Below, one piece after another: positions 13,185 through 59,592 of a stretch of DNA of 64,000 bases. This DNA is from a virus (lineage: Duplodnaviria > Caudoviricetes). The DNA lies in IMG/VR virus record IMGVR_UViG_3300028832_000097, positions 96,001 through 160,000 of that record; one strand, given 5' to 3'. The translations under genes and the position numbers were made by a program. Under the pieces are notes generated by a model. The model was not told the DNA's origin. It searched no databases and worked only from the letters and a program-made list of their open reading frames with translations. Each line of letters starts with the position of its first letter. Positions within the stretch are counted from its first letter, which is position 1.

Positions 13185-13682
13185 TTACTTCAACCCTAGA
13201 AATATAGGTTCAACCAATTTTCTATATTCGTCTACTCCATGATCTATTTTATCTAAGAGCAACGGCATTGTAGCGTCCTCAATCGCACAACAAATTCTCA
13301 TGAGCAATTTTGCTGCTTCAGGTGTTACCTCAAATTCTGGATAATTACCTTTACCGTCATGATTGAATTTACCTGAACGATTATCCGCTAAGAAGCCATA
13401 CAACTCTTTCACATAATCGCTATTTGTATCACCCATGAAACAAAATAGGTTGTTGTGTAACATCTCCTTACTAGGTTTTTTAGTCTTTGGCTTGAGCGTG
13501 AAATCGTCTGCTGCTTGAATCCACTTTGCTACAGAAGTTATCCACCCATTGACATCATCTGGTCGAATATCTGAATACATGAGAAGTTTGATAATATGTT
13601 CAATGATAACACTAGAGTAAGATCTCATAAGAGATCCTGCTCTGTCTTTGTCGGTAGACATAGCTAATATGTATCGTTTCAT
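13185..13682 (-). CDS. DUF29-like protein with MKRYI leader
   Basis: IIEHIIKLL...GWITSV..W resembles the DUF29 core; N-terminus MKRYILAM. Confidence 0.45.
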   Translation of the reverse strand: MKRYILAMSTDKDRAGSLMRSYSSVIIEHIIKLLMYSDIRPDDVNGWITSVAKWIQAADDFTLKPKTKKPSKEMLHNNLFCFMGDTNSDYVKELYGFLADNRSGKFNHDGKGNYPEFEVTPEAAKLLMRICCAIEDATMPLLLDKIDHGVDEYRKLVEPIFLGLK

Positions 13683-13854
13683 TTTTACATGCCCTCCTTA
13701 TTGGTACTAGATTTTTAAGAGAGAACCTAGCAAACTCCTGCAAGTTATGAAGCAACTACCACCTTGCTACGGCCCATATTATTTATATAGCACTCCAAAC
13801 CTCTTAATGAAGAGTAATCCCGTCAGATTGGTTGCATGGCCATCCGAGTGCTTA

Positions 13855-13930
13855 TGGTGTTCCAGAGGCGACTCGAACGCCCGACCCATTGATTAAAAGT
13901 CAATTGCTCTACCGACTGAGCTACTGGAGC
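13855..13930 (-). tRNA. tRNA-Lys(TTT)
   Basis: 76 nt; TAGCTCAGTCGGTAGAGC D-arm, ATTGA-CTTTTAA-TCAAT anticodon arm, GTTCGAGT T-loop, CCA. Confidence 0.95.
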
Positions 13931-14029
13931 ATAAATGCCATTTGTTTTCTTTTCAAAAACTACTGCCGATGGCTCGACGGAGAGTAGGTTTTCATCTCTC
14001 GTGATCTCCGCAAAGATCACCCGCTATCC

Positions 14030-14106
14030 TGGTCTCCTGGACGGGAGTCGAACCCGTAAAACTCGGATTTTAAATCCGATACCTATGCCAATTCGGTTAC
14101 CAGGAG
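14030..14106 (-). tRNA. tRNA-Leu(TAA), short variable loop
   Basis: CTCCTGG/CCAGGAG acceptor, TCGGA-TTTAAAA-TCCGA anticodon arm, GGTTCGACTCC, CCA. Confidence 0.9.
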
Positions 14107-14215
14107 ATGTAACTGGCTGTAACAGTAAGGGAGAAAGTAGTCCAGAGAACCCTTGCTACGAATTTCACGCAGATCTTAAGAAAGAAGACACCGTTCATCT
14201 ACAGGAAGAACGATG

Positions 14216-14289
14216 TGGTCGGAGTGACAGGATTTAAACCTGCGCCCTCATGCTCCCAAAGCACGCGCTATCAGCTGCGCCACACCCCG
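14216..14289 (-). tRNA. tRNA-Pro(TGG), slightly degenerate D and T loops
   Basis: CGGGGTG/CACTCCG acceptor, CGTGC-TTTGGGA-GCATG anticodon arm, T-loop TTTAAAT, shortened D-arm, CCA. Confidence 0.8.
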
Positions 14290-14293
14290 ATGA

Positions 14294-14447
14294 TTACTAC
14301 CAAATGACTTTGGCCATTTGTAAACTAATTACTCAATCCTGGTTAGGCTCAGTTCAAGGCAGAGCTTCCAATAACGGCCTCACTTGTAATCCTTTAATTG
14401 AGTGATTACCTAACAGTTCACAAATAACCAGAGTCATCTGGTAGTAA
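14294..14447 (-). ncRNA. Candidate pseudoknotted long-hairpin RNA
   Basis: 33-bp outer stem with 4 G-U pairs on the minus strand, 12-bp inner stem, and a 7-bp GUUAGGU/GCCUAAC cross-pairing. Confidence 0.5.
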
Positions 14448-14552
14448 AAATGTCAGCAAACTTTAGAGAACTTTGTACTAGTATTATCATACAAGAGAAA
14501 TGTAAATCTGACATCCAAGTGCTGTTGCTTACTTGGTTTTCTTCTCTTTATG

Positions 14553-14627
14553 TGGTTGACGATGCAGGACTCGAACCTACAATAGTTGAGTCAAAGTCAA
14601 CTGTGATAACCGTTTCACTAATCGTCA
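14553..14627 (-). tRNA. tRNA-Gln(TTG)
   Basis: TGACGAT/ATCGTCA acceptor, GTTGA-CTTTGAC-TCAAC anticodon arm, GGTTCGAGTCC, CCA. Confidence 0.93.
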
Positions 14628-14913
14628 GTACATGATGCCTTTCTAAACATGTATTGAAGATGTACACAATGCAATGAGATGTGTGGTGTAGGTATCTCTT
14701 CTTAGGAGCGTGAATCGCGTTGTCATATCTTCGACTAATACATAAGCTTTCACCGGCAGTTTACGACAGATTAACGTATGAACCTGTGTTGCTATATATT
14801 TACGGATGAATATTTGAATCGACAGTACGTAAACTTCGGAGGGCAAATAATTAACAATAGAATATTAAATTGTCAAGTTACTGTGTTATACACACTATAA
14901 CGATTCGTAAAAG

Positions 14914-15198
14914 TTAACTATCATTTGATCTACTAAGCATATCTTTTATAGTAGCATTTAAGGTTTCAAACGCCTTATTAGTGCCATCATTCCAACCACG
15001 TGCATACGCATGGCTTAAAGTTTCTTCCGGATCCATTTCAATGTTGTGAGACATATCAGAATACGCAGTTAATTTTTGCAAACCGTGCTCGTCAAACACT
15101 AAGGAATTAAATCCCTTTACTTTATACAATTTATTCCCATTGTAGTCTAAATACATTTTATCAATTTCAATTATAAACTTTTTACCAACGTAACTCAT
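14914..15198 (-). CDS. Hypothetical phage protein
   Basis: ORF with GGAGG SD; LYKVKGFNSLVFDEHGLQKL motif. Confidence 0.6.
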   Translation of the reverse strand: MSYVGKKFIIEIDKMYLDYNGNKLYKVKGFNSLVFDEHGLQKLTAYSDMSHNIEMDPEETLSHAYARGWNDGTNKAFETLNATIKDMLSRSNDS

Positions 15199-15214
15199 TC
15201 AATGTACCTCCTGC

Positions 15215-16330
15215 TTAAAATAGCTTCTTAACTCTTTTTATCTGTGTATCAGGGTTTAGCCCTTTAACACGATTTACTCTATTATGAACACGCAACCTCA
15301 ATGATTCTGAATCTACATGTAGTAGTTTTGCTGCTGACTCAATGCTTTCATACCTAACACCATCAATCTCGATAGGAATTACTCTAGGATTATTTTCTGA
15401 TCTATTACTATTGAGACCAGTTGCCCATGCATGATTTACATTTTCTTGATTAGTGACCCATTCAAGATTTTCTACTCGATTATCTGTTTTAACTCCATTT
15501 TTATGATTAACCTGAGGTTTATTTTCGGGATTAGGTAGGAATGCCATCGCAACTAACCGATGTAAGAATGCATCAAATCTTGATTGGCTATCACCAGTTA
15601 GTGTTATTCTATGATAACCATCTTGGTCATAATCGGGTTCAAGTACCCTGCCATGAATAGTTATTAAATGATCTCCACGTTGTTCCTTTCGAGGACATGT
15701 GTAAAATCGACCTAGCGAAGATATCATGTACCTACCTTCGTACCCTTCAACGTATTTCCACTCTTCAGTATCTAATGTAGGAGGATGTATACCAAGTTTC
15801 AGGTTATCTGCTTCATCGTTTGACATATCTCCATCAATATGTGTGATAGGCTCATCTATCCACCCTAAAAATGTGCTTGCTACTAGCTCCTCAACCCGGT
15901 ATTCTTTATTATCAAGCATGATCTTGTTACTACAATTTATATTACCTTGCGCAATCTTAAGCAAGCTGTCTTCGGCACAAGATTTGATTCTTCCTAAATT
16001 AGATACGCTATAATGTTTGAAAATCGGTAACCAAACTTCTCCAGGTAATGATTGTATTTGAGATTCACAGGTTAAATTAGATACAGCACAATTGAACCTA
16101 TCACCATCAACATGATGTAGTTTAATCAATTTTGGATCATATGTTGGATCTACAAATAATTGATATATCAGTACATCAAGTGTAAATTCTCTGTTACTAC
16201 CATCTTTACGCAAACTAACTTTACCTGAAGAAGAGACTTTCAGCGGTGTATTCTTTCGCAGATTAATTATCTGCCCACAATCTTGAGCAAGATACAATCC
16301 TTCATATCCTAGTACAGGTAACTCAATCAT
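15215..16330 (-). CDS. NUMOD4/HNH homing endonuclease with three tandem NUMOD4-HNH-like units
   Basis: EEWKYVEGYEGRYMISSLGR; HRLVAMAFLPNPENKPQVNHKNGVKTDNRVENLEWVT. Confidence 0.85.
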   Translation of the reverse strand: MIELPVLGYEGLYLAQDCGQIINLRKNTPLKVSSSGKVSLRKDGSNREFTLDVLIYQLFVDPTYDPKLIKLHHVDGDRFNCAVSNLTCESQIQSLPGEVWLPIFKHYSVSNLGRIKSCAEDSLLKIAQGNINCSNKIMLDNKEYRVEELVASTFLGWIDEPITHIDGDMSNDEADNLKLGIHPPTLDTEEWKYVEGYEGRYMISSLGRFYTCPRKEQRGDHLITIHGRVLEPDYDQDGYHRITLTGDSQSRFDAFLHRLVAMAFLPNPENKPQVNHKNGVKTDNRVENLEWVTNQENVNHAWATGLNSNRSENNPRVIPIEIDGVRYESIESAAKLLHVDSESLRLRVHNRVNRVKGLNPDTQIKRVKKLF

Positions 16331-16336
16331 ACTAGA

Positions 16337-17329: not shown

Positions 17330-17378
17330 AATCCGCTACCTCCTAATTACTTATATGTAACATAACGATTTTGATGTA

Positions 17379-17672: not shown

Positions 17673-17675
17673 AGT

Positions 17676-24576: not shown

Positions 24577-27141
24577 CTATTTCCCGTAAGTCACTCTTCG
24601 CTCAATATCGTCAAGAAATTCTTCCTGTGTTACGTGAAATCTACCTAAATAATGTGTAATACCTTCATTGTATTCATCACTTATGATTCCATTAACACCT
24701 AAAGCAGCATCACCTCTAGGTTTACTGCCGTCTTCATTTTTAAAAACTGGTAATTTATATTCCATTTCAAATAAATGATACTGTATCCATTTCACTTCTT
24801 CCGGATCTTTAGTTAGAATACTAGTAGGTTTAGGGTACTTGCAAGGATATTCCATGCCGTACCACCGAAGTGTAGTTGTTACGTCGCATTTACTTGGAAA
24901 TGGCAAGTATTCTGCAGCTTTACACATCATTTCACTGAGAAGTTCACCGCCACGTTTATAATTTTCAATCTTAACTTCTGCAAGCAACTCATCATGTATA
25001 GGGGTTAATAACCTACCTCCTATGTCTTTCCACTCCTGATTATTTTCTAGCATCAAGATAGCAAGTTTGGTTTGGTCTGCAGCACTGCCTTGTATTACAC
25101 TATTAACAGTCTGTCTTGTAGCATCATTGATCTTACTAGAATTATTAGTTACTTTAATACCTTCCTCGTATAGCTCACGAGTTCTTCTCGCAATCTGACC
25201 AAAATATTTGTAACTATTGAATTCATCAGTAAGTAGTTTAACAATTCTTTCTGGAATGTCAGATTTATGCTGAAGCGTTGTAGGATCTAACGGATCTATA
25301 TCAGGGTTCACATAATTCTTCATTGCGGAGAATTGAAATCTAGGTAACTGCATGTCTGGAAGATGCCTACGCCTTCCAAGAATTGTTTCAGTGTATCCTA
25401 ATTTTCGAGCAGATGCTTGAGTATTAACCATAAGCCGCTGAAGTCCCGGAAATGCTTTCATAACAGAGTCATATACTCGTTGTGCAGCTTTTACTTTAGC
25501 TTCATCTGACATATCATCTCTATGACCATAAAGCTGCTCCGCAATAGACGGAATAGCACGGCCATAACAAATACCTAACAATACTGTTTTGGCCTCACCT
25601 CTTCGAGCTTTACCATCAGGCTGATATTCATGAGTTTCAGGATGGAATTCCAAACAGTTTTCATAAGGTACACCAAATGCTAAACTAGCGATACTTGCAT
25701 AAATATCTCTATCTTGAATAAATGAATCAATCATTCCTTTATCTTGAGATACAAATGCTGTTATTCTAGGTTCCTGGGCCGAGTAATCGCTGGACAACAT
25801 AACATATCCAGGAGTAGCTCTAAACATATGGCGAATATCTGTTGCATGCGAAGGAATGTTCATCATGTTTGGCTCCGAAGAACTCAGACGTCCTGTGGAT
25901 GCGCCGATCTGATTGAACCTAGCATGAATTCTACTATCAGAAGTAGTTGCTTTAGGCATCTTCTCTACAAACGTACTTATGAGTACCCCAAAACTTCTGA
26001 CCTTCAGTATCTGATTTGTGATAGGAAGATTCATTTCTTTGAGTACTTCTTTATCAGTAGACTGTCCTTTGCCTGCAGGCAATTCCATTATGTTATACAA
26101 TAGATGTTTTACATGCAAAGTAGATTTAGGGTTGAAATTAGCCCCGCTAGTAAACGGTTGAGTTGTACCAAATGATTTTGTATATGGATGATCCGCTAAC
26201 TGTTGATCTACCATTTCTGCAAGTTTTGCTTTCTCTTTAGCCTCCTCTTCCTTGTATCGAGGTACAAGCATACTTGCAGTTTCTTTATCAAGATAGATAC
26301 CTAATCTATGCATGTTTTGACAGATAGGTGCAAGTGGAAATTCTACATTCCAAACCAAATCAGCAATACTTTCTAAATGTGCCTTTTTACACTTCTCATG
26401 AGTTTTTGTTACATAAGGTAACTGCCATTTGAAAAGTTCATAAGTAATCTTAGCGTCGTTGGCTGCATATAACTTAGCAACATCTGGCTTACAATATGGA
26501 AATAGTTTTGGAGAGAAGAAATCGTTGAACTTCATTGGATCTCCGTGGCCTTTAAGCACATACTTATTATAAAGTACTTTCAAGGCATTGTCAGGCTCAT
26601 TCTCCTTCAAACATCTCCATGCTAAAATTACATCATAGTAGAATGCAGGATTTAAATCTACTTTTAGATCCTTATACACCATTGCAGAGTCGAAATCAAA
26701 GTTAGCAAAAATCAGCTTAGTATCTGCATCTACTAATCTTTGAAATTCTAACCCTACATCCTCATATGAAAGTTGATTTTTGTACGGTGTATCAAATATA
26801 GGGACTAGATGCTTCATAGGGATGTAACATTCATCACCCCCGGGATAATACAAAGAAGCCCCTACAATAGTATCTCGTATTCTATCAAGACCTGTAGTCT
26901 CTGTATCTAGGCCAGCATATCCTGCATCAATACATTCATCTATGTAATCATGTAACTGGAACTTGTCTGTAATAAGTATGGCAGGCGAATCCTTAAAGTA
27001 CTCAATTACTTTTTGAGATGTCGCCTGCAGCTCATCATTTATTCCTTTAGATGCAACGGATTTAGGAGGCTCTAGTAATTCTTTGCTTTTGGCAGCAACT
27101 TGATTTATTTGTTCAAGTTGCGATGCACTAAACAGCCCCAT
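24577..27141 (-). CDS. polA: Family A DNA polymerase with 3'-5' exonuclease (Leu at the E. coli 762 position)
   Basis: DTETTGLD and YAANDA exonuclease motifs; TGRLSSSEPN; motif A DYSAQEPR; motif B RGEAKTVLLGICYG; motif C IHDEL. Confidence 0.95.
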   Translation of the reverse strand: MGLFSASQLEQINQVAAKSKELLEPPKSVASKGINDELQATSQKVIEYFKDSPAILITDKFQLHDYIDECIDAGYAGLDTETTGLDRIRDTIVGASLYYPGGDECYIPMKHLVPIFDTPYKNQLSYEDVGLEFQRLVDADTKLIFANFDFDSAMVYKDLKVDLNPAFYYDVILAWRCLKENEPDNALKVLYNKYVLKGHGDPMKFNDFFSPKLFPYCKPDVAKLYAANDAKITYELFKWQLPYVTKTHEKCKKAHLESIADLVWNVEFPLAPICQNMHRLGIYLDKETASMLVPRYKEEEAKEKAKLAEMVDQQLADHPYTKSFGTTQPFTSGANFNPKSTLHVKHLLYNIMELPAGKGQSTDKEVLKEMNLPITNQILKVRSFGVLISTFVEKMPKATTSDSRIHARFNQIGASTGRLSSSEPNMMNIPSHATDIRHMFRATPGYVMLSSDYSAQEPRITAFVSQDKGMIDSFIQDRDIYASIASLAFGVPYENCLEFHPETHEYQPDGKARRGEAKTVLLGICYGRAIPSIAEQLYGHRDDMSDEAKVKAAQRVYDSVMKAFPGLQRLMVNTQASARKLGYTETILGRRRHLPDMQLPRFQFSAMKNYVNPDIDPLDPTTLQHKSDIPERIVKLLTDEFNSYKYFGQIARRTRELYEEGIKVTNNSSKINDATRQTVNSVIQGSAADQTKLAILMLENNQEWKDIGGRLLTPIHDELLAEVKIENYKRGGELLSEMMCKAAEYLPFPSKCDVTTTLRWYGMEYPCKYPKPTSILTKDPEEVKWIQYHLFEMEYKLPVFKNEDGSKPRGDAALGVNGIISDEYNEGITHYLGRFHVTQEEFLDDIERRVTYGK

Positions 27142-42111: not shown

Positions 42112-43062
42112 CTATTGTTCAATGTACTGCTGAATATCTTGAATTACATTTTTGATAGAAGTGCGTTCGGAAGTTCTATTGCCAGTATAAGTTGTAGTAC
42201 CTCCGCCTTCATCTGTATGTACAACTAATTCATAATCAATAGGCTCTTCGCTATCAGGGAAGAGTGTTAGGTGTTCAACTTCACTCCACTGTCTTCCGTT
42301 ACGGTCCCAATGTGCCCCGCTAGTACGCTTTCCAAAATGTACCGGAATATCATTATTGATAAAATACATGAGAAGCTGTTTAGGTGCCCAGCAAGATTTT
42401 TCCTCAAAAGTGAACAATCCCCTAGAATCTGGTAAATCGTAATTCTTTTCAAACTCCGTACGTGTGTCAGCATACTGTGGATCTGCAGCTACTCGTCTAC
42501 TTATTGCATTAAATGTATCTTCTTTATCGTTTGTCCAGCTCCACCCAAAACTATTATTCTTCTTACATGCAGTTGATAATTCTCCCCAATCAAGTAACTT
42601 GGAAGCGTAGTAGTAAGTAAGCAACTTATTTTCATCTTTGATAGCTTTTACATTTACTTTGCTACCTCTATCACGATAATCTTTGAGTTTATCCAACACA
42701 GCTTTTGAAGGCTTGTAGAGGTCAATATCGATTTCACCTAATTCAGCATTGTAGTCATCTTCAGCTTGCTTAGATTCTGCTTCGTAAGCTTCTTTAAACT
42801 TATTCATGTCGATATAGAAATATAAATCACCATGTTTAGGCTCTATGTACTTACCGCCAGCACTGCGAATTCTAGATTTAAGATCTGCAATTTCTTCAGG
42901 ATCTAACGTATAGTACGTTCTTGTAATATAAAAATTATGTTTGCCAGATGAAGTGTTCACCAGTTTATACTTATCGGACCATCTAGATATGCCGAGCTTA
43001 CTATATAGTCGATCCATAGGTTGTTCAACATATCGCTTGCTTGCTACAATGTATCTTTTCAT
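42112..43062 (-). CDS. Hypothetical protein with MKRYI leader
   Basis: Starts MKRYIVAS; GGAGG SD. Confidence 0.65.
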   Translation of the reverse strand: MKRYIVASKRYVEQPMDRLYSKLGISRWSDKYKLVNTSSGKHNFYITRTYYTLDPEEIADLKSRIRSAGGKYIEPKHGDLYFYIDMNKFKEAYEAESKQAEDDYNAELGEIDIDLYKPSKAVLDKLKDYRDRGSKVNVKAIKDENKLLTYYYASKLLDWGELSTACKKNNSFGWSWTNDKEDTFNAISRRVAADPQYADTRTEFEKNYDLPDSRGLFTFEEKSCWAPKQLLMYFINNDIPVHFGKRTSGAHWDRNGRQWSEVEHLTLFPDSEEPIDYELVVHTDEGGGTTTYTGNRTSERTSIKNVIQDIQQYIEQ

Positions 43063-44246: not shown

Positions 44247-44663
44247 TTATTTATTTATGATAGGTCTATCCTCATGAAACTTAACACCGTTGAATGTTTC
44301 ATTGATATTATGCATTACTTTTGCTAAAGATAATAAAGTATCTTCGTCTAGTTCATCATAAATATGAAGTTTCCATCCGTCGCGAGTCCATGAAATATCA
44401 TAATGATTGCCTGATTTAGTTGTATACAGGCTGTAAAATCCTAAAAGTTGTCCGTTATCAGCTACGCCCACTGAGTCTATATCAGAAAGTTTTAAGTTGC
44501 TTCCAGCAAGACACCTGTTAACCATTTTTACTATGTTTTCTAGCGTATTATATGGACGGTTGTATCGACTATAATTATCTATGTAACAAGCGCCCTGAGA
44601 CCTTACCGCATCGTCATTTGCTTTGATGCATTTACTAGGATATTTTGTAAGTTTCTTTATCAT
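44247..44663 (-). CDS. Hypothetical protein (basic leader ending IKAN)
   Basis: AAGGAGG SD; MIKKLTKYPSKCIKAN. Confidence 0.55.
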   Translation of the reverse strand: MIKKLTKYPSKCIKANDDAVRSQGACYIDNYSRYNRPYNTLENIVKMVNRCLAGSNLKLSDIDSVGVADNGQLLGFYSLYTTKSGNHYDISWTRDGWKLHIYDELDEDTLLSLAKVMHNINETFNGVKFHEDRPIINK

Positions 44664-44981: not shown

Positions 44982-45347
44982 CTATATCCCGTTTTTCAAT
45001 TTTGTTTTCTTATCGCCAGTTAATTTTGCATATATGAAGTTGTTTCTAATATATTGATGAAAAAAGTGGCCCTTCGAGGGAGCTGCAACTAATCTGCGAT
45101 ACAATGCAGTAGGTACATCATAGTAGACATATATATCATCTGGACCACCTAAAGCACCTTTGAATTGTATATATAAATCCCCATACTGCATCTTAGGGTC
45201 TTTTACATTCATAGCATAACTCCACATGTTTGAAGAGCGGACCCTAACCATGTTTTTAGTTATGTCTTTAGAAGAAATGGCTGCAGTAATTTTACTGCGA
45301 TAACTAACTGGTGCAAATGTAACTGATGCGATTTCAGGATATTTCAT
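44982..45347 (-). CDS. KTSC domain protein
   Basis: VRSSN...LYIQFK...YVYYDVP..LY..LVAAPSKGHFFHQYIR. Confidence 0.85.
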   Translation of the reverse strand: MKYPEIASVTFAPVSYRSKITAAISSKDITKNMVRVRSSNMWSYAMNVKDPKMQYGDLYIQFKGALGGPDDIYVYYDVPTALYRRLVAAPSKGHFFHQYIRNNFIYAKLTGDKKTKLKNGI

Positions 45348-45348
45348 A

Positions 45349-45645
45349 TTATTGATTTCTTAATGTTGTTTTAGCATCGCTGATTGCTTGCATTGTTTCT
45401 TCAGAAGTAGAGGAAAGTAAATAATCATAAATGTACTCCAGACCTTCCCAATCACGTCCAAGCTGTTCTGCACATTCAAGAACACCAAAAAGCCATGCAG
45501 ACTTCTTATCATCTATTATTTTAGTTAGTTTACCTAACATCACGAATTCTGATCTATCACCTTTACAATGCTGGATTGCTTCTACCATGTTAGATATATC
45601 GCCATTATTCGGAAATACAGAGGCGGATGTGATTACTCGTTTCAT
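45349..45645 (-). CDS. Hypothetical protein with MKRVI leader
   Basis: Starts MKRVITSAS; AAGGAG SD. Confidence 0.6.
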   Translation of the reverse strand: MKRVITSASVFPNNGDISNMVEAIQHCKGDRSEFVMLGKLTKIIDDKKSAWLFGVLECAEQLGRDWEGLEYIYDYLLSSTSEETMQAISDAKTTLRNQ

Positions 45646-45690
45646 AGTGTGCTCCTTGTATCATGATTATACAGATATATATAAGGTGAA

Positions 45691-46209: not shown

Positions 46210-46623
46210 TTATTTCTTGCCTTGATTTTCAATGTAGTATTGTAGAGTTTGTGAACTTACTTCTCCTATAGATGCTATAAAGTACCCATCTGACCAAAAG
46301 GTGCGTTCGTGCCAGAAGCATTTAGATAGATATGGTTCATACTTCTCCCAAATATGATACGTTGTGTACTGCTTCAAACCTCTAACAAAATCCGACAAAT
46401 TGATATTCGGAGTTGTTTCTATCATATAGTGAATATGGTCTTTATCAGTTTCCATATACTTAATTTTGACATCGTGCTTGTTAGCAATTTCTTCTGACAG
46501 TTTCTTAATGTCTGAAGATACATTGTTACCCCCAAGCAATTTTCTTCTGTACTTGCATACAAAAATTAAGTGATATCTTAATAGAAATTTACATCTGTTT
46601 TTAGAAACATACTCATTACTCAT
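46210..46623 (-). CDS. tnpA: IS200-family HUH (Y1) transposase
   Basis: YHLIFVCKYRR, DKDHIH, FWSDGYF, YYIENQG. Confidence 0.95.
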   Translation of the reverse strand: MSNEYVSKNRCKFLLRYHLIFVCKYRRKLLGGNNVSSDIKKLSEEIANKHDVKIKYMETDKDHIHYMIETTPNINLSDFVRGLKQYTTYHIWEKYEPYLSKCFWHERTFWSDGYFIASIGEVSSQTLQYYIENQGKK

Positions 46624-46726: not shown

Positions 46727-47992
46727 ATGTCAACTTATGCAGTACAAAGTAATGTCATTCGGGGATTATCCAAGAAGCAGTATGCCTTGCTTAAAGAAAT
46801 GTGTCGATATTCCAATAGTCTGTATAATGTTGCTCTTTACAATATAAGACAACATTATTTTGATACTAAGATGTTTTTGACCTATGAAAGTAATTACCAC
46901 GAATGTAAGACCAATGAAAGTTACAAGTTACTGCAAGCAGGGGTGGCTCAACAAACTATGAAAGTTGTTGACCGCAGTTTTAAGTCATTTTTCAACTTGT
47001 TGAAAAAGTGTAAGGTTGGAGATTATCGCTACCATGATGTAAAGATACCTCATTATAGAAAATCAGGTGGATTATTTAATTTAGTGCTTTCTACTAATGC
47101 GATTATTATTCGTGGTGATTATCTGATGCTCCCTATGAGTAGAGAGTTTAGGGCATTACATCCTGAGGTTAAAGAGATTGCAATACCGTTTCCTAAAAGG
47201 CTTTCAGATAAAACTATTAAAGAAGTTCGTATCTTGCCTTGCAGTAATGGTAGAGTATTCAAAATTCAGTATGCGTATGAAGTAGCAGAAGAACCGATAA
47301 ATCTGAATAAGGACAATGTAATTTCAATTGACATCGGAATAGATAATTTGGCAACTTGCGTTCCCACCATTGGGACACCATTCATTATGGATGGTCGTAA
47401 ACTTAAATCAATCAATCACCAGTGGAATAAAGAAATAGCAAGACTTCGCTCAATATCTATGAAACAGGGTTTGAAAACTACTAATCGTATTCAGAAAATC
47501 ACCGCTAAACGCAACAATCAAGTGAATGACTGCATCAAGAAGACTGCACGATATATTATTGACTATTGTATAACAAATGATATAGGTTCGCTTGTTGTCG
47601 GGTATAATGCTGATTTCAAGAGAAATTCCAATATTGGTAAAGTCAATAACCAGAATTTCGTTCAGATACCTCTTGGAGATTTGAGAAATCAGTTAAGTTT
47701 TCTTTGTTGGAAGTATGGTATTGACTACATCGAACAAGAAGAAGCCTATACATCTAAAAGCAGTTTCCTTGACAAAGATGTATTGCCTAAATACAAGCCT
47801 GAACAACCATATAAAGGCAAGTTTAGCGGTAAAAGAATATGCCGTGGATTGTATTGTTCTGCAAATGGTACAATCGTTAATGCGGATGTAAACGGTGCGG
47901 CAAACATAATGAGAAAATGTAAGCAGAATGTCGATTTCGACAAACTGTGTCTAGGGCTTTTGGCGAGTCCTGCAAGAATAAGGCTCTCGTAG
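46727..47992 (+). CDS. tnpB: TnpB RNA-guided endonuclease
   Basis: RuvC residues present: IDIGIDN, QEEAYTSK, NADVNGAANI; N-terminal LYNVALY HTH. Confidence 0.93.
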   Translation: MSTYAVQSNVIRGLSKKQYALLKEMCRYSNSLYNVALYNIRQHYFDTKMFLTYESNYHECKTNESYKLLQAGVAQQTMKVVDRSFKSFFNLLKKCKVGDYRYHDVKIPHYRKSGGLFNLVLSTNAIIIRGDYLMLPMSREFRALHPEVKEIAIPFPKRLSDKTIKEVRILPCSNGRVFKIQYAYEVAEEPINLNKDNVISIDIGIDNLATCVPTIGTPFIMDGRKLKSINHQWNKEIARLRSISMKQGLKTTNRIQKITAKRNNQVNDCIKKTARYIIDYCITNDIGSLVVGYNADFKRNSNIGKVNNQNFVQIPLGDLRNQLSFLCWKYGIDYIEQEEAYTSKSSFLDKDVLPKYKPEQPYKGKFSGKRICRGLYCSANGTIVNADVNGAANIMRKCKQNVDFDKLCLGLLASPARIRLS

Positions 47993-48959
47993 CAAACTTC
48001 TTGCGAATCCCATTGGCTTTAGCCGATGGGTACGTCAATATCTCGGATTGCTAATCTTAAGTATTCCGAATCTCGTCCAATGTAGTTTGCAGCTTTTGAA
48101 ATTGAAGCAAATGTTTGTACAGCACCGTCTGCACATGTTATCCTACATCTATGCGCATAACAGCGCTTTTTCTTACATTTTGCAATATATTCTACATATG
48201 TTCTATTGTCTCTATCATATCTATAGAATTTGTGTGCAACATCTAATATAGGCCAATTATTCATTATGCAATTTGACACATACCCTTGTGGCATATTTAA
48301 GAATCTATCACATTGCCAAAAACTTGCAAACTCGTGTTCTACATCATCTACAACAAGCTTGCATCGATTTTTATTTGCAGGATCTGGTCTGATATATTTG
48401 ATCCAGTTCTTATCAACCTCTGTGTATACTTCAACAACTTCACCACTTGTAGATGTAATTCTATATCCACGACTGATACATTCTGAAACATAATCTTCAT
48501 ATCGCCCTAAGTAATGACTTGCGACCTTTTGACTATTGAATATATGTTCACCAGAGGTGTCAAGTATTTTAACTCGGACACCGTGACCTTCCTGATTGTT
48601 ATCAAAAGCAGACATCCAGCAAAGATTCTCAATTCTGTTATCTAGTTTGTTGTGATTCTTATGATGCACAGTAGGATTGCACATATGTGCAGGAGGATCT
48701 CCAGCAAATTTAAGCAATACAATGATATGTACCCTTATATTCAATGTTTTACCATCTTTTCGAGGTAACCCAACTTCGTAGTATCCATCATCGGTAATGT
48801 GCGGTTTAAGTATATGATTATTTAGGTTTCTGATAGTACCACAATTAGATATTTCATATGTTGAATTTAGCTGTACATTTCGAATTTCTTGAAATGAAAC
48901 CCAAAGTTCTTTGGGTTGATCTATAGGACATGAAATAGATATTAGAGGTCTGGTGCGTT

Positions 48960-50426
48960 TCATACAACAATCTTATTATAATAATTTGACCAAGGCATCA
49001 TCTGTTCTATTTTGTACGCAACTCTATATACATCTTCGTCAAAGTATCGTCTACCTACTACCTGAACGCCAATAGGAAGATTATTAGAACCAAGTCCTGC
49101 CGGAACTGATGCTGCAGGGTTGCCGGTCATATTCTGTAACCAGGTCTGGCAGAAGCCAATAAGTTGTTCTACACTTGCTCCCTCAATGTTTTCAGGTCCC
49201 TTAGTATCTTCCTCAGAATTAAGTACAGGCATACAGGATGTGACAGGTGAAATAATAATATCGTGATCTTTGAGCACTGCAAGATTTGCATCAAGAATAT
49301 CTGTCCTGATTTCATGGAACTTACGATAGTCGAGCATCGTAGATGCAAATGCTTTATTTGTCCATTCAATAAACTGATCGGGTAAATCTTCTGCATGGTC
49401 TCCCATTAAATCAAACCCGGTAGTTTCTTTCATGATGTGCAAGTCTAATGCTCCATCAACACTAATGCTTCTGAGCCAAGCTTCAACCATTTCTTCAAGA
49501 GAATGCTTGAAAGTAAAATGTACAGGTTCAACAATAGCTCCAGCAGTTTCGAGCACTGTTGCAACTTTGTCTACAGCTGCTTTAATCTCAGGATCAACAA
49601 AAATAAACAAGTCATAGTCATATGTTAGCCCAATTCGCATTCCTTTTATACTTTCTACCTGGGTGTTGAAGAAATTCTTATGTGGAAGCGGTACAGAAAT
49701 CGGATCCATTGGGTCGTATGCCATCATGTTTTCCATAATTATTGCTGAATCTGTAACAGTTCTTGCCGTTGGGCCGTCACAGCAATAAGGATGTGTAGCT
49801 GTCCAAGCATCAGGTCTGCATACGCTAGGTACTATTCCTGCGGAAGGTTTGAAACCAAATGTACTGCACCATGCGGATGGCACGCGTGTACTTCCTCCAG
49901 CGTCGCCGCAGCTAGCCAGTGGGACCATTCGGCTTCCGACAGCCGAGCAACTTCCGCCAGAACTTCCACCAGAATTATATGCAAGATTAAACGGATTATG
50001 TGTATTACCATACATCTTATTGTAGGTTGTTCCTCTAAAACCAAATGAAGGTGCATTTGTTTTGCCTATTGCAATGCAATCAAGTTTCCTTGCAGCTTGC
50101 CAAAAGGTGCAATCAGCATCATCTACAGTTATAAATGATTTTACTCCACCATGTGTAGCTGTCCATCCCTTCTTTGCAGGTAAGAAATCTTTAAGTGCAA
50201 CAGGAACTCCGGCAAATAATCCTACAGATTCACCTTTCATAATCCTATCTTCTAATGCTTTTGCTTCTTCTAGTGCTTCGTCAATCTTTGTGTATGTAAA
50301 CGCATTGAGTGATTTGTTTTTAGTTTCAATCAACTTCGCAAAGTAGTTTATCACCTCCACCGGAGAGATTTCTTTACTCCTAACTAATTTACCTAATTCT
50401 AACGCTGAAAGTGTTTCTAGTTGCAT
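48960..50426 (-). CDS. Amidase-signature family enzyme (GatA-like)
   Basis: GVPVALKD, GKTNAP, GGSSGGS, DAGGSTRVPS, GFKPS, GNPAASVP, LPIGVQ; start moved to MQLE after AAGGAG. Confidence 0.9.
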   Translation of the reverse strand: MQLETLSALELGKLVRSKEISPVEVINYFAKLIETKNKSLNAFTYTKIDEALEEAKALEDRIMKGESVGLFAGVPVALKDFLPAKKGWTATHGGVKSFITVDDADCTFWQAARKLDCIAIGKTNAPSFGFRGTTYNKMYGNTHNPFNLAYNSGGSSGGSCSAVGSRMVPLASCGDAGGSTRVPSAWCSTFGFKPSAGIVPSVCRPDAWTATHPYCCDGPTARTVTDSAIIMENMMAYDPMDPISVPLPHKNFFNTQVESIKGMRIGLTYDYDLFIFVDPEIKAAVDKVATVLETAGAIVEPVHFTFKHSLEEMVEAWLRSISVDGALDLHIMKETTGFDLMGDHAEDLPDQFIEWTNKAFASTMLDYRKFHEIRTDILDANLAVLKDHDIIISPVTSCMPVLNSEEDTKGPENIEGASVEQLIGFCQTWLQNMTGNPAASVPAGLGSNNLPIGVQVVGRRYFDEDVYRVAYKIEQMMPWSNYYNKIVV

Positions 50427-50457: not shown

Positions 50458-50835
50458 TTATTTGAATTCTCCACGTGACTTAAGCGCATTAAACAAATCA
50501 AAATCGTCAAATGATCCGTCTGTATCCATGTAATGCTTAAGCAATAAATCATAATTTCTAGCTACATACTCAATACCTTCTTCAAATGAATCAATCTCGC
50601 TCTGCTTAAATTTAGATAACCAATTTTTAGGTGCGAGCACTACAGGATGATCAGAAATGCTTACAGAAATTGATGCATCACCAATATCAAGTTTAACTCG
50701 AGGAAGTTTATCAGGCTTGTTTCGTAAGCAACCTTGGCCGTCGGACCAGATATTAACTCTAAGTCCTGTTCGTTTCTTATTTATGTTAGCCATCGCCATT
50801 ATAGTATCATTGGTTGTTCTGATATATTTTTTCAT
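50458..50835 (-). CDS. Hypothetical protein (DUF4160-like) with MKKYI leader
   Basis: MANINKKRTGLRVNIWSD...PRVK; N-terminus MKKYIRTT. Confidence 0.5.
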   Translation of the reverse strand: MKKYIRTTNDTIMAMANINKKRTGLRVNIWSDGQGCLRNKPDKLPRVKLDIGDASISVSISDHPVVLAPKNWLSKFKQSEIDSFEEGIEYVARNYDLLLKHYMDTDGSFDDFDLFNALKSRGEFK

Positions 50836-51848: not shown

Positions 51849-52346
51849 TTAGAATTCGTCGCTCCAACCATGACCTATATCCCAATGGATATCTTTCTCA
51901 AATTCTGTGCCTTTGGGAAGGTTGAATTCATCTAGAATGTACTGCCTAACATGAGGATAATCGTCTATCCAGTCACCTGTGAATACAATAAATCCCTTAT
52001 TTTTGAATTCAAATACTCTTCCGCGAGGTACAAGTGTATGATCTCCTTGAAATCTTATATCTTTTCCTCTAAAGTATTCTTTCTGCCATATGTTCTTATG
52101 AAGGTGCTTATCTGTTCTAATATCGGTATTCCATTGATTTGAATGATACCAATTGAGATCTGTAGCTACTGTACTTTTGATCCCAAATAATTCGTCTGCT
52201 TCGGGATCATACCAAAACATTGCAACTTCTGGATCATCTTTATATTTATCGTTTTCAAACATCACATCCATAGCCGAAGATGCTTCGGATGTTCGAGCAG
52301 ATCTTTCTTGTGCTGCTTCTTCAGGAGATTTGATGTATCGTTTCAT
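51849..52346 (-). CDS. Hypothetical protein with MKRYI leader
   Basis: Starts MKRYIKS; HK.IW, PRGRVF and D.HW motifs. Confidence 0.6.
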   Translation of the reverse strand: MKRYIKSPEEAAQERSARTSEASSAMDVMFENDKYKDDPEVAMFWYDPEADELFGIKSTVATDLNWYHSNQWNTDIRTDKHLHKNIWQKEYFRGKDIRFQGDHTLVPRGRVFEFKNKGFIVFTGDWIDDYPHVRQYILDEFNLPKGTEFEKDIHWDIGHGWSDEF

Positions 52347-52413: not shown

Positions 52414-52686
52414 TCAATACCACATTTCTCGGAGTTTATCATACACATATTCTTTGAACTCTTGAGTATCAACTTTATCCTGGTATTCCGGCCACTCTTC
52501 TGGTTGTATTTCGTTGATTACATCATAGACGTGTTCCCACGCGATGTCATATATATCTTCTTCAGAACAATCGTACCTATAATTCTCTATGGTGCAACGT
52601 AGTTCATCTGCGATAAGCAAATCAAGGCGCGGTGATTCAATTCGTGATGCAGTCATAACTGGTACTTTTCTAAATTGTCTTTTCAT
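52414..52686 (-). CDS. Hypothetical acidic protein with basic leader
   Basis: MKRQFRKVPVMTAS followed by an acidic body. Confidence 0.55.
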   Translation of the reverse strand: MKRQFRKVPVMTASRIESPRLDLLIADELRCTIENYRYDCSEEDIYDIAWEHVYDVINEIQPEEWPEYQDKVDTQEFKEYVYDKLREMWY

Positions 52687-53023: not shown

Positions 53024-53329
53024 TTATATGCTCCTTGAATCTATTTCAGACATTAGATTATCAATGAATTCTTCAGTGTCAATTGTCATCGCATCTTCTT
53101 CAGTAGCTACTTCTACAATGTAGATGCTATCAAGAAATTTGAATTTGCGCTCGTTAGTTTCAAATGGGCTTTCAAATATCTCTTGTGCTTGTTCGCAGGC
53201 GATTTTATTAGCAGCCCTTTGGCTATTGGCACCACCTAATAGACAATCTTTACCATCAGGGCTTATCCAATGTACTTGATACGTAGTTTTCCAAGGAGTA
53301 ACTCCAGAAGATCTAATGTAGCGTTTCAT
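53024..53329 (-). CDS. Hypothetical protein with MKRYI leader
   Basis: Starts MKRYIRSS; preceded by AACCTT motif. Confidence 0.6.
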   Translation of the reverse strand: MKRYIRSSGVTPWKTTYQVHWISPDGKDCLLGGANSQRAANKIACEQAQEIFESPFETNERKFKFLDSIYIVEVATEEDAMTIDTEEFIDNLMSEIDSRSI

Positions 53330-55187: not shown

Positions 55188-55194
55188 AATAAAG

Positions 55195-55259: not shown

Positions 55260-55283
55260 ATTTTATATTATAACGATTTTAAG

Positions 55284-56198
55284 TCATTTGGACTCAAAAT
55301 AATGTGAGAAAATATAAGTTCTTCCCCACCTACCTAACCCATTGATATAACTATCAAAGGTTATACCGAATATATTATCTAATGAATAAAATTCTGATTC
55401 CAATAGTTTAATATCTCTGAAATTATCACTAAATATGTCAACATACATGGATTCGTAAGTATCTCCATATTCATCTACTTCTGTTTCTATGTATGCATCA
55501 TTTATTGACAGACCGTAATTTTGAATGAGACGAAGTATGTACTGCTCCTCCCTATCAGTTATTGCAGCGGTATGTTGAGGAGAATTGAAATCTAAAGAGC
55601 CAAATATAGATTTATGGTTTTCAGATTCTAAATATGAAATTATCTGCATGAATTCATCAAACGACAGTGCAGATTCACAACTAGAATTGTTATAGTAATC
55701 ACTAATGTAGGATTCAGAATATTGCTTGCGTTTATCACCTTTAAGCTGGTGAAATTTAGGATCTGAAATTAAATTAAGATAACATTCTTCTACATATTCA
55801 ATTTGTTCAGCGCTAAATTTATTTACAACTACATTAAAATCATTGAATTTTTGCTTAGTTGTATATTTAGGTGCAGAAACTCTATTCAAATTTTTATGAT
55901 CTGTGATATTAAATAATTTTAAATCAAGGTCAATATCTTGACCATCGACTGTGTAAAGAAGTATTATATCACCTGTTTTTCTACCATCAAGGTGAATATG
56001 TTCAATTTTCTTTGTGTTCTTAAGCGGACGTGCATATTCTTTCTCATACATGTCAACCCCTAGAATAATCTCGTCAATGATTCTAAATAGTTTAGCTACT
56101 TCTGAAGATAGATTATCATGTTTGAGTTGTGCTAAACCATCGCAAAATTGAGAGGTGCATGTTATATTGTATCTAGTATAATCAATAGAATTACTCAA
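55284..56198 (-). CDS. RelE/YafQ-like ribonuclease domain fused to a C-terminal extension
   Basis: YNI..TSQF...L...EHIHL...DIILLY...LKLFNITDHKNL follows the YafQ template. Confidence 0.55.
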   Translation of the reverse strand: MSNSIDYTRYNITCTSQFCDGLAQLKHDNLSSEVAKLFRIIDEIILGVDMYEKEYARPLKNTKKIEHIHLDGRKTGDIILLYTVDGQDIDLDLKLFNITDHKNLNRVSAPKYTTKQKFNDFNVVVNKFSAEQIEYVEECYLNLISDPKFHQLKGDKRKQYSESYISDYYNNSSCESALSFDEFMQIISYLESENHKSIFGSLDFNSPQHTAAITDREEQYILRLIQNYGLSINDAYIETEVDEYGDTYESMYVDIFSDNFRDIKLLESEFYSLDNIFGITFDSYINGLGRWGRTYIFSHYFESK

Positions 56199-56361
56199 AA
56201 TCGCGCATCTCCTTAAGTATATTCATGAATTCATCTGCAGGGATAGTTTTATTAGGCACATCTCCAAACCTATCGTGCCATCTCTGGAAAAAATCAGATT
56301 TAGCTCGAGGTTCTTGTGAAATGTATCTATCTTTATTATTGATCTCAATCCGTCTTTTCAT
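56191..56361 (-). CDS. 56-aa protein overlapping the YafQ-like gene (possible antitoxin)
   Basis: Below ORF-track cutoff; hand-translated MKRRIEINNKDRYISQEPRAKSDFFQRWHDRFGDVPNKTIPADEFMNILKEMRDFE. Confidence 0.5.
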   Translation of the reverse strand: MKRRIEINNKDRYISQEPRAKSDFFQRWHDRFGDVPNKTIPADEFMNILKEMRDFE

Positions 56362-56412
56362 ATTATCTGCTTCCTAACATATTGTTGTATTCAGCTATGG
56401 ATTCATACAAGG

Positions 56413-57363: not shown

Positions 57364-57460
57364 TTTTTAAATCCTCCTTGATTGTGTATTGATAGGTTGA
57401 ATTATATCTACAGTTACTATAACGATTCATAAAAATTTAATCAAGGAAGAATAATATCAA

Positions 57461-58017
57461 TTAAATTAAGAAAATTTGATTAGTATGGAAGCATACAAAT
57501 TCAGACGCATTAGCTGCTCCAGATACATTACTGCGATACTTGCCTTGCTTGTAGGAAAATTTAACCCCATCATATCCTGCGTCTTTTACCGCACTGTGAA
57601 TTCTTCTATAGGTGTTTCATCTTCTAGATATGCAAATGGGGCTAATCTCCCATTATATACGCGAGGGCTGATACCTAATGTGAGTAATGTATATATTGAA
57701 TCTGGGTTAGAATATATAAATGGATTGGTGATATTTAAGTATGCACGTTTCACGTTACTTCCATAACTTTGAGATAGCTTGAGAGAGTTGGAGAAATATA
57801 TTCCTTTGCCAAACCATCCAATGTTGCCAGAATTCTGTGAAATAAACTCATCCTTGAATTCATTGAATTCGTTTGGTGTTCCGTGATAACATACAATAAG
57901 ACGTCCATCTCGTGTGCGTATTTTAGAAGATTTTAGTGCAATCGCAATGTCAGAAGGTACAACGTTACCTTCATTATCATATTCAATATGTGCAGATGAG
58001 TTAATGTATCTTTTCAT
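57461..58017 (-). pseudogene. ADP-ribosyltransferase-like (ART-PolyVal) gene with MKRYI leader, frameshifted near 57595
   Basis: YHGT...F..F...G.GIYFS...YG..V..AYLNI.NP in frame; conserved end GYDGV...EFVCFHTNQI continues in the -1 frame to a stop at 57461. Confidence 0.7.
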
Positions 58018-58021
58018 ACGC

Positions 58022-58165
58022 TTACTTTTTCTTTGGTTCCTTCCACCCGCTAAGACGAATAGCTACCCCTTGCTTTTCAGCCTTCTGCTTAGCACCTTTA
58101 CCGTAGTATACTTTACCAGTTTTACCCCATTGATATCCGCCACCAGGTGTTTTATGTACAGGCAT
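58022..58165 (-). CDS. 47-aa basic phage protein
   Basis: Below ORF-track cutoff; MPVHKTPGGGYQWGKTGKVYYGKGAKQKAEKQGVAIRLSGWKEPKKK with GGAGG SD. Confidence 0.65.
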   Translation of the reverse strand: MPVHKTPGGGYQWGKTGKVYYGKGAKQKAEKQGVAIRLSGWKEPKKK

Positions 58166-58169
58166 TGTG

Positions 58170-58739
58170 TTAATCCTCCAAATTAATATCTTCTAGTTTA
58201 GAATATGTTTCGGCAATTTTATCAAGTTTGCTCATCACAGCAAATTCTGCATGTGCATAGTCCTTAAAGTACTTTTGATTAACTACAATACCTCTAGGAA
58301 TAACTTTAACATATCCTGGATAGGTTTCACGGATTTCTTGTAACACCGATTGCTCGTGTTTCCATCGAGCTGATTCAGAATGTTTGGTCATGTTGTGCGT
58401 AGAAATTCGAAAATCTACTATTATTTTTCCTGCCAATTCTCCGTAGGCATTTCTAACCCCTATATAAAAATATAATGACTGCGGTATATCTGTACCAGGA
58501 AAAACAGTTCCAGGTTTTTCTGCTAGTAGAATCAACGATTTATTAGAAGCAATAGTAGATTTCACCATACCAATGAAATCTAACCAATCATTTAATGCTT
58601 GCTGATCGTCCTCAAAATCAGTTTGAATCAATTTAGAAGACTGTATAGTACCTGCAGATTCTACTAAGAAATCTATAGCTAACGTTTCTATAGTAGGCAG
58701 GTCTGCAATGAATCTAGGCATTCTAGTATATTGTCTCAT
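58170..58739 (-). CDS. Hypothetical protein (RISTH motif)
   Basis: SLYF...FRISTH pattern of polyvalent-protein-associated domains; start moved to MRQY. Confidence 0.5.
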   Translation of the reverse strand: MRQYTRMPRFIADLPTIETLAIDFLVESAGTIQSSKLIQTDFEDDQQALNDWLDFIGMVKSTIASNKSLILLAEKPGTVFPGTDIPQSLYFYIGVRNAYGELAGKIIVDFRISTHNMTKHSESARWKHEQSVLQEIRETYPGYVKVIPRGIVVNQKYFKDYAHAEFAVMSKLDKIAETYSKLEDINLED

Positions 58740-58799
58740 TAATGTTACCTCCGTCATACACATATAAACGAATCAAATATGTGAGATGACGTACATAAG

Positions 58800-59045
58800 T
58801 TAAATAGCACCATCAGATTCATAGAAATCTAACTCATCCAAAACAACTTCAGGTTCATTTTCAAACCTGTATTGAGCTTCTTCTAACAATTGTTCCTTGA
58901 CACCCTCATCGTCGATGTGACCATAATGGTCTAGTATCCCATATGGATCAAATTCCCACATGAAATTTACAAGCTGTTCAAGAATGTCATCTGTAAGTAC
59001 TTGAGTTCTGATTGCATCTCTCAGTTCTTCAATGTCGAATCCCAT
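58800..59045 (-). CDS. Hypothetical acidic protein
   Basis: ORF with AGGAG SD. Confidence 0.55.
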   Translation of the reverse strand: MGFDIEELRDAIRTQVLTDDILEQLVNFMWEFDPYGILDHYGHIDDEGVKEQLLEEAQYRFENEPEVVLDELDFYESDGAI

Positions 59046-59049
59046 TATA

Positions 59050-59295
59050 TCACTCTCCTACATAATCACGCAGATAGTCTAATGCGCTGAGAATATCGTC
59101 CATCTCAGATTCAAGCTCTTCAATCTGCTCCTGTATCTTTTCAATTCTAGCTTCTTCAGCCTCAGTTAAATCTCTATCATGGTCGCCGGCATTATCTTCA
59201 ATCTGTGCTTCTTTTTCTTCCAAGATCTCAATCTTGTCATTTATAGTTTCGCAAATATCATCAAGTCTATCTACAATTGCGTTAAGTTTTATCAT
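59050..59295 (-). CDS. Acidic coiled-coil protein
   Basis: Heptad-rich and highly acidic; GGAGG SD. Confidence 0.55.
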   Translation of the reverse strand: MIKLNAIVDRLDDICETINDKIEILEEKEAQIEDNAGDHDRDLTEAEEARIEKIQEQIEELESEMDDILSALDYLRDYVGE

Positions 59296-59316
59296 GATTT
59301 AACCTCCCTTACACAT

Positions 59317-59592
59317 TTAAAGTACTAGGTAAGTGCTATCGTCTATTTCACGAGCCATTCTATTATGACACATACCCTCTAAGCATCCTAATAAATCATA
59401 GAAGTCATCAATACCAAGTTGTTTAGCTTCATAAATCAACCCTCCGGGTTTATCCTCAGGCCAATCAGCTCGTTTACTTATTGTGTGTCCAGATAGATTA
59501 TCAGAAACTAGCTGGCCGTATTTCTCAAATTCATCTTTTCCGAAGTACCATCCGTTTCTGAAAGTTAACCCTGCAGTAATTACTCGTTTCAT
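59317..59592 (-). CDS. Hypothetical protein with MKRVI leader
   Basis: Starts MKRVITAG; GGAGG SD; ATCGTTA motif upstream. Confidence 0.6.
   Translation of the reverse strand: MKRVITAGLTFRNGWYFGKDEFEKYGQLVSDNLSGHTISKRADWPEDKPGGLIYEAKQLGIDDFYDLLGCLEGMCHNRMAREIDDSTYLVL

Follow-up and report, generated by a model that had tools for sequence, protein, structure and literature searches.

Introduction

The internal proteins (Ips) of phage T4 are cut once next to a capsid-targeting sequence (CTS) of about 10 residues, MKTYQEFIAE, and fusion to this CTS suffices to have any protein packaged. Alt, the ADP-ribosyltransferase of T4, is reportedly tagged likewise. At least 10 Ip types are described among T-even phages; the leader is all that they have in common, and the GmrSD nuclease that is inhibited differs between Ip1, Ip2 and Ip3 (PMC12373910). 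The head proteases of T4, phiKZ, 201phi2-1 and SPN3US all cut after Glu (PMC5694885). In the herpesvirus pseudorabies virus (PrV), a protease-scaffold fusion carries its release site after the protease domain, and the sites read Y-L-Q-A|T (R site) and V-Q-A|S (M site) (PMC4498786). Here we analysed a 64,000-nucleotide (nt) window, bases 96,001-160,000 of the 170,977-bp virus contig IMGVR_UViG_3300028832_000097, in which unrelated proteins begin with nearly the same short peptide. We call this peptide the leader, the proteins that carry it tagged and the part that follows it the body. The evidence presented below suggests that the leader is probably a T4-like capsid-targeting propeptide that is removed by the head protease, the trimmed cargo staying in the head and being injected.

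The contig (36.9% G+C; CheckV completeness 100%) is the genome of the phage under study, G000, and nearly all of its genes lie on the minus strand. The analyses covered the whole genome with a set of 243 genes, called by ourselves from a codon-usage score and a Shine-Dalgarno score. For comparison, we used 52 related IMG/VR loci with 57-73% capsid identity, and four complete related genomes were taken whole (G001, G002, G004 and G005). A megablast search against phage records found no close cultured relatives. Positions refer to the window unless they are given as genome positions.

Results

One leader on 47 proteins

The leader was found on 47 of the 243 proteins, about one gene in five, and it occurs in two forms. 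The short form, MK[RK][YV]I-x-[SAC]-[SATN], is 8 residues long and starts 28 proteins, and the long form, 12-19 residues, is present in 19 proteins and consists of MKxFTKxP followed, after 0-9 residues, by [IV]-x-[AS]-[AS]. The leaders are basic, end in [IV]-x-[AS]-[SA] and have no conserved Glu. Once the leaders were stripped, the 47 bodies fell into 43 BLAST families (E ≤ 1e-3), and in one homologous pair one member carried the short leader and the other the long one. Ten of the tagged genes lie inside the window. An earlier note, made from the window alone, had described the same leader on a dozen unrelated proteins; the phenomenon is real and much larger than that. The note had found all ten tagged genes of the window, and its eight core starts were exactly located: minus-strand MKRYI at 13682, 43062, 52346, 53329 and 58017, MKKYI at 50835 and MKRVI at 45645 and 59592.

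We then compared these frequencies with chance expectations. MKRYI starts 19 of the 243 proteins, when 0.36 would be expected by position-wise independence and the maximum in 2000 column shuffles was 4, and KRYI had no internal occurrence in about 51,000 residues. Similarly, a strict leader pattern gave 24, 26, 16, 5 and 2 matches at the true N-termini of five related genomes and none at internal-Met pseudo-N-termini in any of the five, indicating that the leader is no mere bias of MK starts, the explanation that the earlier note had named as fatal to its proposal. At the nucleotide level, the leader codons vary, as that note had also observed (K is AAA or AAG; R is CGA, AGA, AGG or CGC; I is ATT, ATC or ATA). 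Each core start is preceded by a Shine-Dalgarno-like (GGAGG-like) site, and the DNA upstream is not conserved between copies. We conclude that selection acts on the leader peptide. The string MKRYI was not found in the literature searched.

The leader end recurs in the capsid propeptide and the head protease

The head module lies entirely outside the window and includes the following two genes:

Genome 77,098-78,570: major capsid protein, Gp23-type (PF07068, E 2.7e-15)
Genome 78,596-80,071, minus strand, directly upstream of the capsid gene: protein of 491 amino acids (aa) whose first ~165 residues match Peptidase_S77 (PF03420; T4 gp21 family) with 34-36 bits against a cut-off of 27; phrog_207, E 7e-25

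The portal is also T4-like. The phage is T4-like in its head genes only; the DNA polymerase (24577-27141, minus strand), for example, belongs to family A (PF00476 plus a 3'-5' exonuclease), whereas that of T4 belongs to family B. There is no S78 or ClpP-type protease in the genome, and other head proteases were therefore rejected as the cutter. Searched by sequence against the PDB, the 491-aa protein gave no match, either as a single sequence or as a profile, and gp21 was found by fold search only. The nearest structure to an AlphaFold model of the protease domain (predicted local distance difference test, pLDDT, 77) was T4 gp21, 5JBL (Foldseek E 2.5e-6, template modelling (TM) score 0.62-0.68), followed by herpesvirus proteases (probability 0.8-0.96, TM score 0.4-0.5). 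His66 and Ser121 are invariant in 22 clade sequences, and we infer that they are catalytic.

The earlier note had proposed looking for the I-x-[AS]-S site in capsid or scaffold propeptides. The site is there, and it is conserved in about 40 relatives. When all 243 proteins were ranked by a Poisson score for the loose motif [IV]-x-[AS]-[SAG], the top rank went to the capsid protein (12 sites, p 4e-6) and the next to the protease (10 sites, p 1e-4). The first 70 residues of the capsid protein, which are basic and almost devoid of acidic residues, hold 4-5 sites, the count depending on how loosely the motif is defined. In the relatives, the N-terminus of the capsid protein consists of one such site after another, up to a conserved I-[TM]-A-A-T-N-T junction. 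Their 29 distinct propeptides have a median of 5 sites, no [IVLM]-x-E site and at most 3 acidic residues, with a site density of 0.079 per residue compared to 0.018 in the mature part (4.5 times). As a separate observation, the long leader (..T-K-x-P-I-T-A-S) resembles the first N-terminal site of the capsid protein (..R-R-P-I-[TM]-A-[SG]).

In the protease, I-A-A-[SA] stands directly after the last strand of the catalytic domain, where A162 and A163 are invariant and S164 is conserved in at least 90% of the sequences, and the pLDDT of the model collapses at residues 164-167. Further sites occupy conserved alignment columns along the ~320-residue coiled-coil tail that follows, which has a conserved acidic C-terminal end and looks like a fused scaffold.

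The leader in related genomes

All four complete relatives tag many proteins. G002 has 26 strict leaders on 17 body families, G001 has 16 on 16 and G005 has 5 (MKRVIRSS). G004 has few MKR leaders and uses a variant of its own, MS[IV]Y[VIL]K, on 14 small proteins from 13 BLAST families (e.g. 75123-78847 and 107547-109714 of that genome). Since G004 swaps MKR for MSI and keeps Y-V-K-small-small, the conserved core of the leader is Y-[IV]-[KR]-small-small. Homologues in the four relatives were found for only 10 of the 47 bodies of G000, indicating that the tagged set turns over fast. Most homologues of tagged proteins carry the leader and a few are without it. In addition, G005 encodes, at 155262-158777, a 1171-aa protein with the leader MKIVKSS, whose residues 485-535 correspond to a domain that in G000 forms a tagged protein by itself; the 1171-aa protein is possibly a polyprotein or a polyvalent form.

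Nature of the tagged proteins

The tagged proteins are small, with a median of 118 aa. Pfam families were recognised in five of the 47: LRV/HEAT in three, LRR_5 in one and ART-PolyVal in one. PHROGs matched four, all with entries of unknown function. Beyond LRV/HEAT, LRR_5 and the ADP-ribosyltransferase (ART), the Pfam and PHROGs searches on all 47 proteins, together with Atlas look-ups for 42112-43062 and 13185-13682, returned nothing usable on cargo function. No replication, transcription or structural domain was detected by Pfam in the tagged set, which agrees with the claim of the earlier note that no replication gene carries the leader. Transmembrane-like segments were present in none of the 47 tagged proteins compared to 19 of the 196 untagged ones, and a secretion or membrane signal was rejected because no tagged protein has a hydrophobic segment.

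The earlier note had read an ART domain in the protein starting at 58017, and the domain match held (PF18760, 55 bits against a cut-off of 31.2). The gene is not intact: a tblastn comparison showed that the frame is broken near 57595, with residues 1-141 in one frame and 142-181 in the next, so that the conserved S-E-F-V-C-F segment, which contains the C-terminal conserved Glu, lies in another frame. Its orthologues are continuous and 186 aa long. An error of assembly, decay to a pseudogene or programmed frameshifting could account for the break. Across the 39 orthologues of this family, M1 and K2 of the leader are invariant and I5 is conserved in at least 90%, which makes the leader as conserved as the catalytic core.

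Leader-bearing genes of the window and their neighbours

The ten tagged genes of the window are:

13185-13682, minus strand: tagged gene, 165 aa, MKRYILAM; no Pfam or PHROG match
42112-43062, minus strand: tagged gene, 316 aa, MKRYIVAS; ORFan
44247-44663, minus strand: tagged gene, 138 aa, long-form leader ending I-K-A-N
45349-45645, minus strand: tagged gene, 98 aa, MKRVITSA, directly behind an AACCTT-type promoter-like motif
50458-50835, minus strand: tagged gene, 125 aa, MKKYIRTT
51849-52346, minus strand: tagged gene, 165 aa, MKRYIKSP
52414-52686, minus strand: tagged gene, 90 aa, long-form leader ending V-M-T-A-S
53024-53329, minus strand: tagged gene, 101 aa, MKRYIRSS, behind an AACCTT-type motif
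57476-58017, minus strand: tagged ADP-ribosyltransferase (ART-PolyVal, PF18760, E 1.8e-14), MKRYINSS
59317-59592, minus strand: tagged gene, 91 aa, MKRVITAG

Less certain cases are:

9976-10689, minus strand: conserved 237-aa protein with a possible 8-residue propeptide (M..K-I-Y-A-S); no Pfam or PHROG match
10702-11733, minus strand: conserved 343-aa protein with a possible short propeptide (V-I-L-G-S); phrog_3754, function unknown
44982-45347, minus strand: KTSC protein, 121 aa (PF13619, E 3.6e-12), with a probable variant leader (MKYPEIAS, then K-I-T-A-A at residues 19-23)
56191-56361, minus strand: doubtful member (MKRRIEI), without the small-residue end
58170-58739, minus strand: possible degenerate long-form member judged by its N-terminus (MRQYTRMP..F-I-A-D), membership uncertain; no Pfam match; absent from the list of the earlier note

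Several of these genes could be followed into the relatives. The G001 homologue of 13185-13682 keeps Y-I-x-A-M-S behind an extra MKMYIKSQK, that of 51849-52346 (53% identity) begins MKRHIMAE, and the body of 59317-59592 corresponds to the C-terminal part of a 163-aa tagged protein in G002. The proteins starting at 10689 and 11733 keep an N-terminal [IVF]-x-[SA]-[SA] in relatives, with I-F-A-S or I-L-S-S at the same place for the former and V-F-S-A in G001 for the latter. Thus, among the looser versions that had been put forward, those at 52686 and 44663 proved to be the long form, the one at 45347 is a plausible variant and those at 10689 and 11733 may have short propeptides, while 56361 is doubtful. 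Two further statements of the earlier note were not borne out: 13185-13682 has no Pfam match to DUF29, which it had been said to resemble, and the recognisable domains do not start just after the leader, as the Pfam domains begin at residue 37 in the ART and at residue 57 in the KTSC protein.

An IS200/IS605-type element lies amid the tagged genes. It comprises:

46210-46623, minus strand: Y1 transposase (PF01797, E 2.8e-35)
46727-47992, opposite (plus) strand: TnpB-like protein with OrfB_IS605 and Cas12f1-like TNB domains

The relative G001 has a similar 421-aa protein, near-identical at the N-terminus, to which the comparison was confined. Next to the element is one more gene with an MKR start that is no leader member:

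48019-48963, minus strand: HNH/NUMOD homing-endonuclease-like protein (PF13392, PF07463) starting MKRTRP

Promoter-like motifs

Two strand-biased promoter-like motifs were found 30-75 nt upstream of gene starts. ATCGTTA has 51 coding-strand copies against 7 on the other strand and precedes 38 genes, including replication genes; one copy, at 59621, is upstream of the tagged gene starting at 59592. The second motif, [AC]ACCTT-n-h-w-w, has 52 coding-strand copies against 24, precedes 30 genes (e.g. copies at 45688 and 53372) and heads the first genes of the head, portal, terminase, baseplate and fibre units. Possibly, ATCGTTA marks the early or middle promoters of the clade and [AC]ACCTT the late ones. 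The T4 late promoter TATAAATA was rejected as a late promoter here, with only 12 coding-strand copies, few of them intergenic. Tagged genes are commoner behind the [AC]ACCTT motif (29 of 105 genes, compared to 18 of 126 behind ATCGTTA; Fisher p 0.014), an association that, weakly and indirectly, would fit co-expression of the tagged genes with head assembly.

Discussion

Proposed role of the leader

In the mechanism that we propose, the leader would be an N-terminal propeptide that marks soluble accessory proteins for entry into the assembling prohead. A single gp21-type head protease (Peptidase S77, assemblin fold) would cut at the leader end, [IV]-x-[AS] before [SA], and the same motif is found again in the basic capsid propeptide, just behind the catalytic part of the protease and at further points of its scaffold-like tail. 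By analogy with the T4 Ips and Alt, the trimmed proteins would remain inside the head until the DNA is injected and would reach the host together with it, where they might act without delay, for instance against defences or in taking over the host. The restriction of the leader to N-termini, its use on unrelated bodies, its conservation in the clade and its match to head-protease substrates can be read directly from the sequences. From these features we infer the actual cleavage with its exact scissile bond, the targeting to the prohead, the injection and the function of the cargo. The idea of a processing signal, already raised in the earlier note, is well supported at this level by the motif in capsid and protease, the single gp21-family protease, the lack of replication or structural domains in the cargo and the presence of an ART among it. 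For the other half of that idea, the packaging and injection of effectors, the case in this uncultured phage is one of analogy with T4, and both steps are putative.

Several observations weigh against this proposal. All characterised S77 proteases cut after Glu, so that the predicted cut at Ala/Ser would need a change of specificity. The end motif is low in information, with a background of 0.46% per residue, and a strict position-specific scoring matrix (PSSM) of the leader, Tyr included, was not enriched internally (12 matches compared to 11.8 expected) and was rejected as an internal cut site. The link between the leader and the capsid and protease therefore rests on the loose motif and its conservation, and the full leader would be an N-terminal device of which only the end is common to the structural substrates. 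Even within the loose motif the P2 preference differs, being K/R in leaders and T/M in capsid sites. The tagged bodies are acidic (median isoelectric point 4.7; 43 of 47 below 6 and none above 8), whereas the T4 Ips are basic, and 47 cargo types, about 20% of the genes, is far above the use of one shared leader by any characterised phage. Eighteen tagged genes stand behind the replication-associated ATCGTTA motif. Finally, the phage is uncultured and its nearest cultured relatives by capsid are at 27% identity, none being closer than about that.

Part of this evidence would be accommodated if the leader were a cleavage signal only, trimmed in the cytoplasm by the head protease or another endopeptidase to activate or time the proteins, with neither packaging nor injection. 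The motif match to the protease substrates speaks for cutting and not for targeting, the acidic cargo and the very many tagged genes fit the T4 Ip model less well, and the replication-type motif ahead of 18 tagged genes points the same way. We nevertheless regard this explanation as unlikely: gp21-type proteases of the T4 kind are reported to be active only inside assembled proheads, the protease studied here is tied to a scaffold-like tail that would also put it in the prohead, and the conserved part before the cut (MKRY, or Y-[IV]-K) exceeds what such a protease would need. The strictly N-terminal position of the leader could also reflect recognition by the host, for instance as a ClpXP-type N-terminal degron or by a chaperone, so that the tag would set how long accessory proteins last or how they fold, and Met-basic-hydrophobic N-termini may resemble one class of ClpX N-terminal signals. 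Such a tag would leave unexplained why the leader end matches a motif that is repeated in the propeptide of the capsid protein and in the tail of the protease, why leader forms so unlike each other have just this end in common and why G004 replaces MKR by MSI while keeping Y-V-K-small-small, which together make it very unlikely.

An RNA- or translation-level feature, either a start-proximal operator or an early-elongation ramp, of which peptide conservation would be a by-product, is suggested by codon usage, as the Tyr of the G000 leaders is TAC in 17 of 20 MKRYI leaders compared to 30% genome-wide and the Arg is NGA in 18 of 20. However, internal Y-I pairs are already TAC 51% of the time, so that most of the TAC bias is a codon-pair effect, and the corresponding search of G002 yielded TAT in 12 of 20 MKRYI starts, with R, K and I codons varying freely. 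Moreover, the upstream DNA is not conserved, the long and short forms share the peptide motif and no nucleotide pattern, and the leader is absent from the highly expressed structural genes. An RNA operator or codon signal was thus rejected, since the bias is mostly a general Y-I effect and is absent in G002, and we consider a nucleotide-level origin scarcely credible.

Capsid targeting with removal by the head protease consequently remains the explanation that we favour. A more ambitious form of it extends to the whole clade of ~160-170-kb uncultured phages, in which a scaffold-fused gp21 protease would have shifted from Glu to a herpesvirus-like [IV]-x-Ala|Ser specificity and an 8-residue leader would bring dozens of unrelated, acidic and fast-evolving proteins, encoded by about 20% of the genes, into the capsid, to be injected along with the DNA; we see the chances of this scenario as evenly balanced. 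If it were true, the leader would provide a sequence-only listing of injected proteins, with about 47 candidates here and hundreds across the clade, nearly all without a known family, and hence a large source of proteins that might act in anti-defence or host takeover. It would also mean that gp21-type proteases are not confined to cutting after Glu and that the parallel between phages and herpesviruses (protease-scaffold fusion and a Y-hydrophobic-x-Ala|Ser site) is closer. The 8-residue tag could then join the T4 CTS as a small fusion partner by which foreign proteins are brought into phage capsids.

Comparison with known systems

The closest counterpart is the T4 CTS carried by IPI-III and Alt and processed by gp21. 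In both cases a short N-terminal leader stands on otherwise unrelated proteins and ends in a known or predicted head-protease motif, the protease belongs to the same family (S77, with 5JBL as the nearest fold), and the cargo genes are fast-evolving, non-essential-looking accessory genes that include an ADP-ribosyltransferase. Of the T4 leader sequence, MKTYQEFIAE, only the M-K-x-Y start and a later I-x-small/acid recur here, too short a stretch for a test of similarity. In contrast, the predicted cut adjoins Ala/Ser here and follows Glu in [L/I]-x-E in T4; there are 47 tagged genes compared to 3-4; the leader is basic, with 8 or 12-19 residues; the cargo is acidic; and the rest of the phage, for instance its family A polymerase, is not T4-like. 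The system would thus work like the T4 CTS and yet fail one of its defining features, the Glu-specific cut, besides differing in scale, leader sequence and cargo charge. Streptococcus phage GXN1 and Bacillus phage HSE3, the two examined among the nearest cultured capsid relatives (27% identity), have propeptides rich in [LI]-x-E, and no recurrent leader was found in the first 50 kb of HSE3.

In the giant phages phiKZ, 201phi2-1 and SPN3US (gp175/gp245 proteases), head and ejection proteins have propeptides. Many proteins of the head interior are processed there by a protease of the gp21 family, which recognises a short motif present in several copies within propeptides and also cuts its own C-terminus (PMC5694885, PMC10052503). 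These proteases differ in cutting after Glu ([S/A/G]-x-E), the propeptides often exceed 100 residues with no single shared leader, and 42 head proteins of SPN3US were judged uncleaved by gp245.

PF18760 (ART-PolyVal) is named for the polyvalent proteins, which are presumably delivered with the DNA. The tagged ART belongs to this family, and the 1171-aa tagged protein of G005 contains a domain that stands alone in G000, a further likeness. Unlike the polyvalent proteins, however, the cargo here consists mostly of separate small proteins, each with its own leader, and not of one giant multidomain protein.

The herpesvirus assemblins (UL26 family) resemble the present protease in being fused to the scaffold with a site right after the protease domain, and the folds are related, although the similarity is much weaker than that to gp21 (TM score 0.4-0.5 compared to 0.62-0.68). 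Their sites, of the general form (V/L/I)-x-A|S/T with Tyr at P4 in the release site, read almost as the Y-[IV]-[KR]-[AS]-[SA] found here, where the scissile bond is a predicted one. We know of no shared N-terminal cargo tag in herpesviruses. A herpesvirus-like specificity is accordingly a lead offered by the sequence comparison, and not a demonstrated property, for a leader whose nearest model is the T4 CTS.

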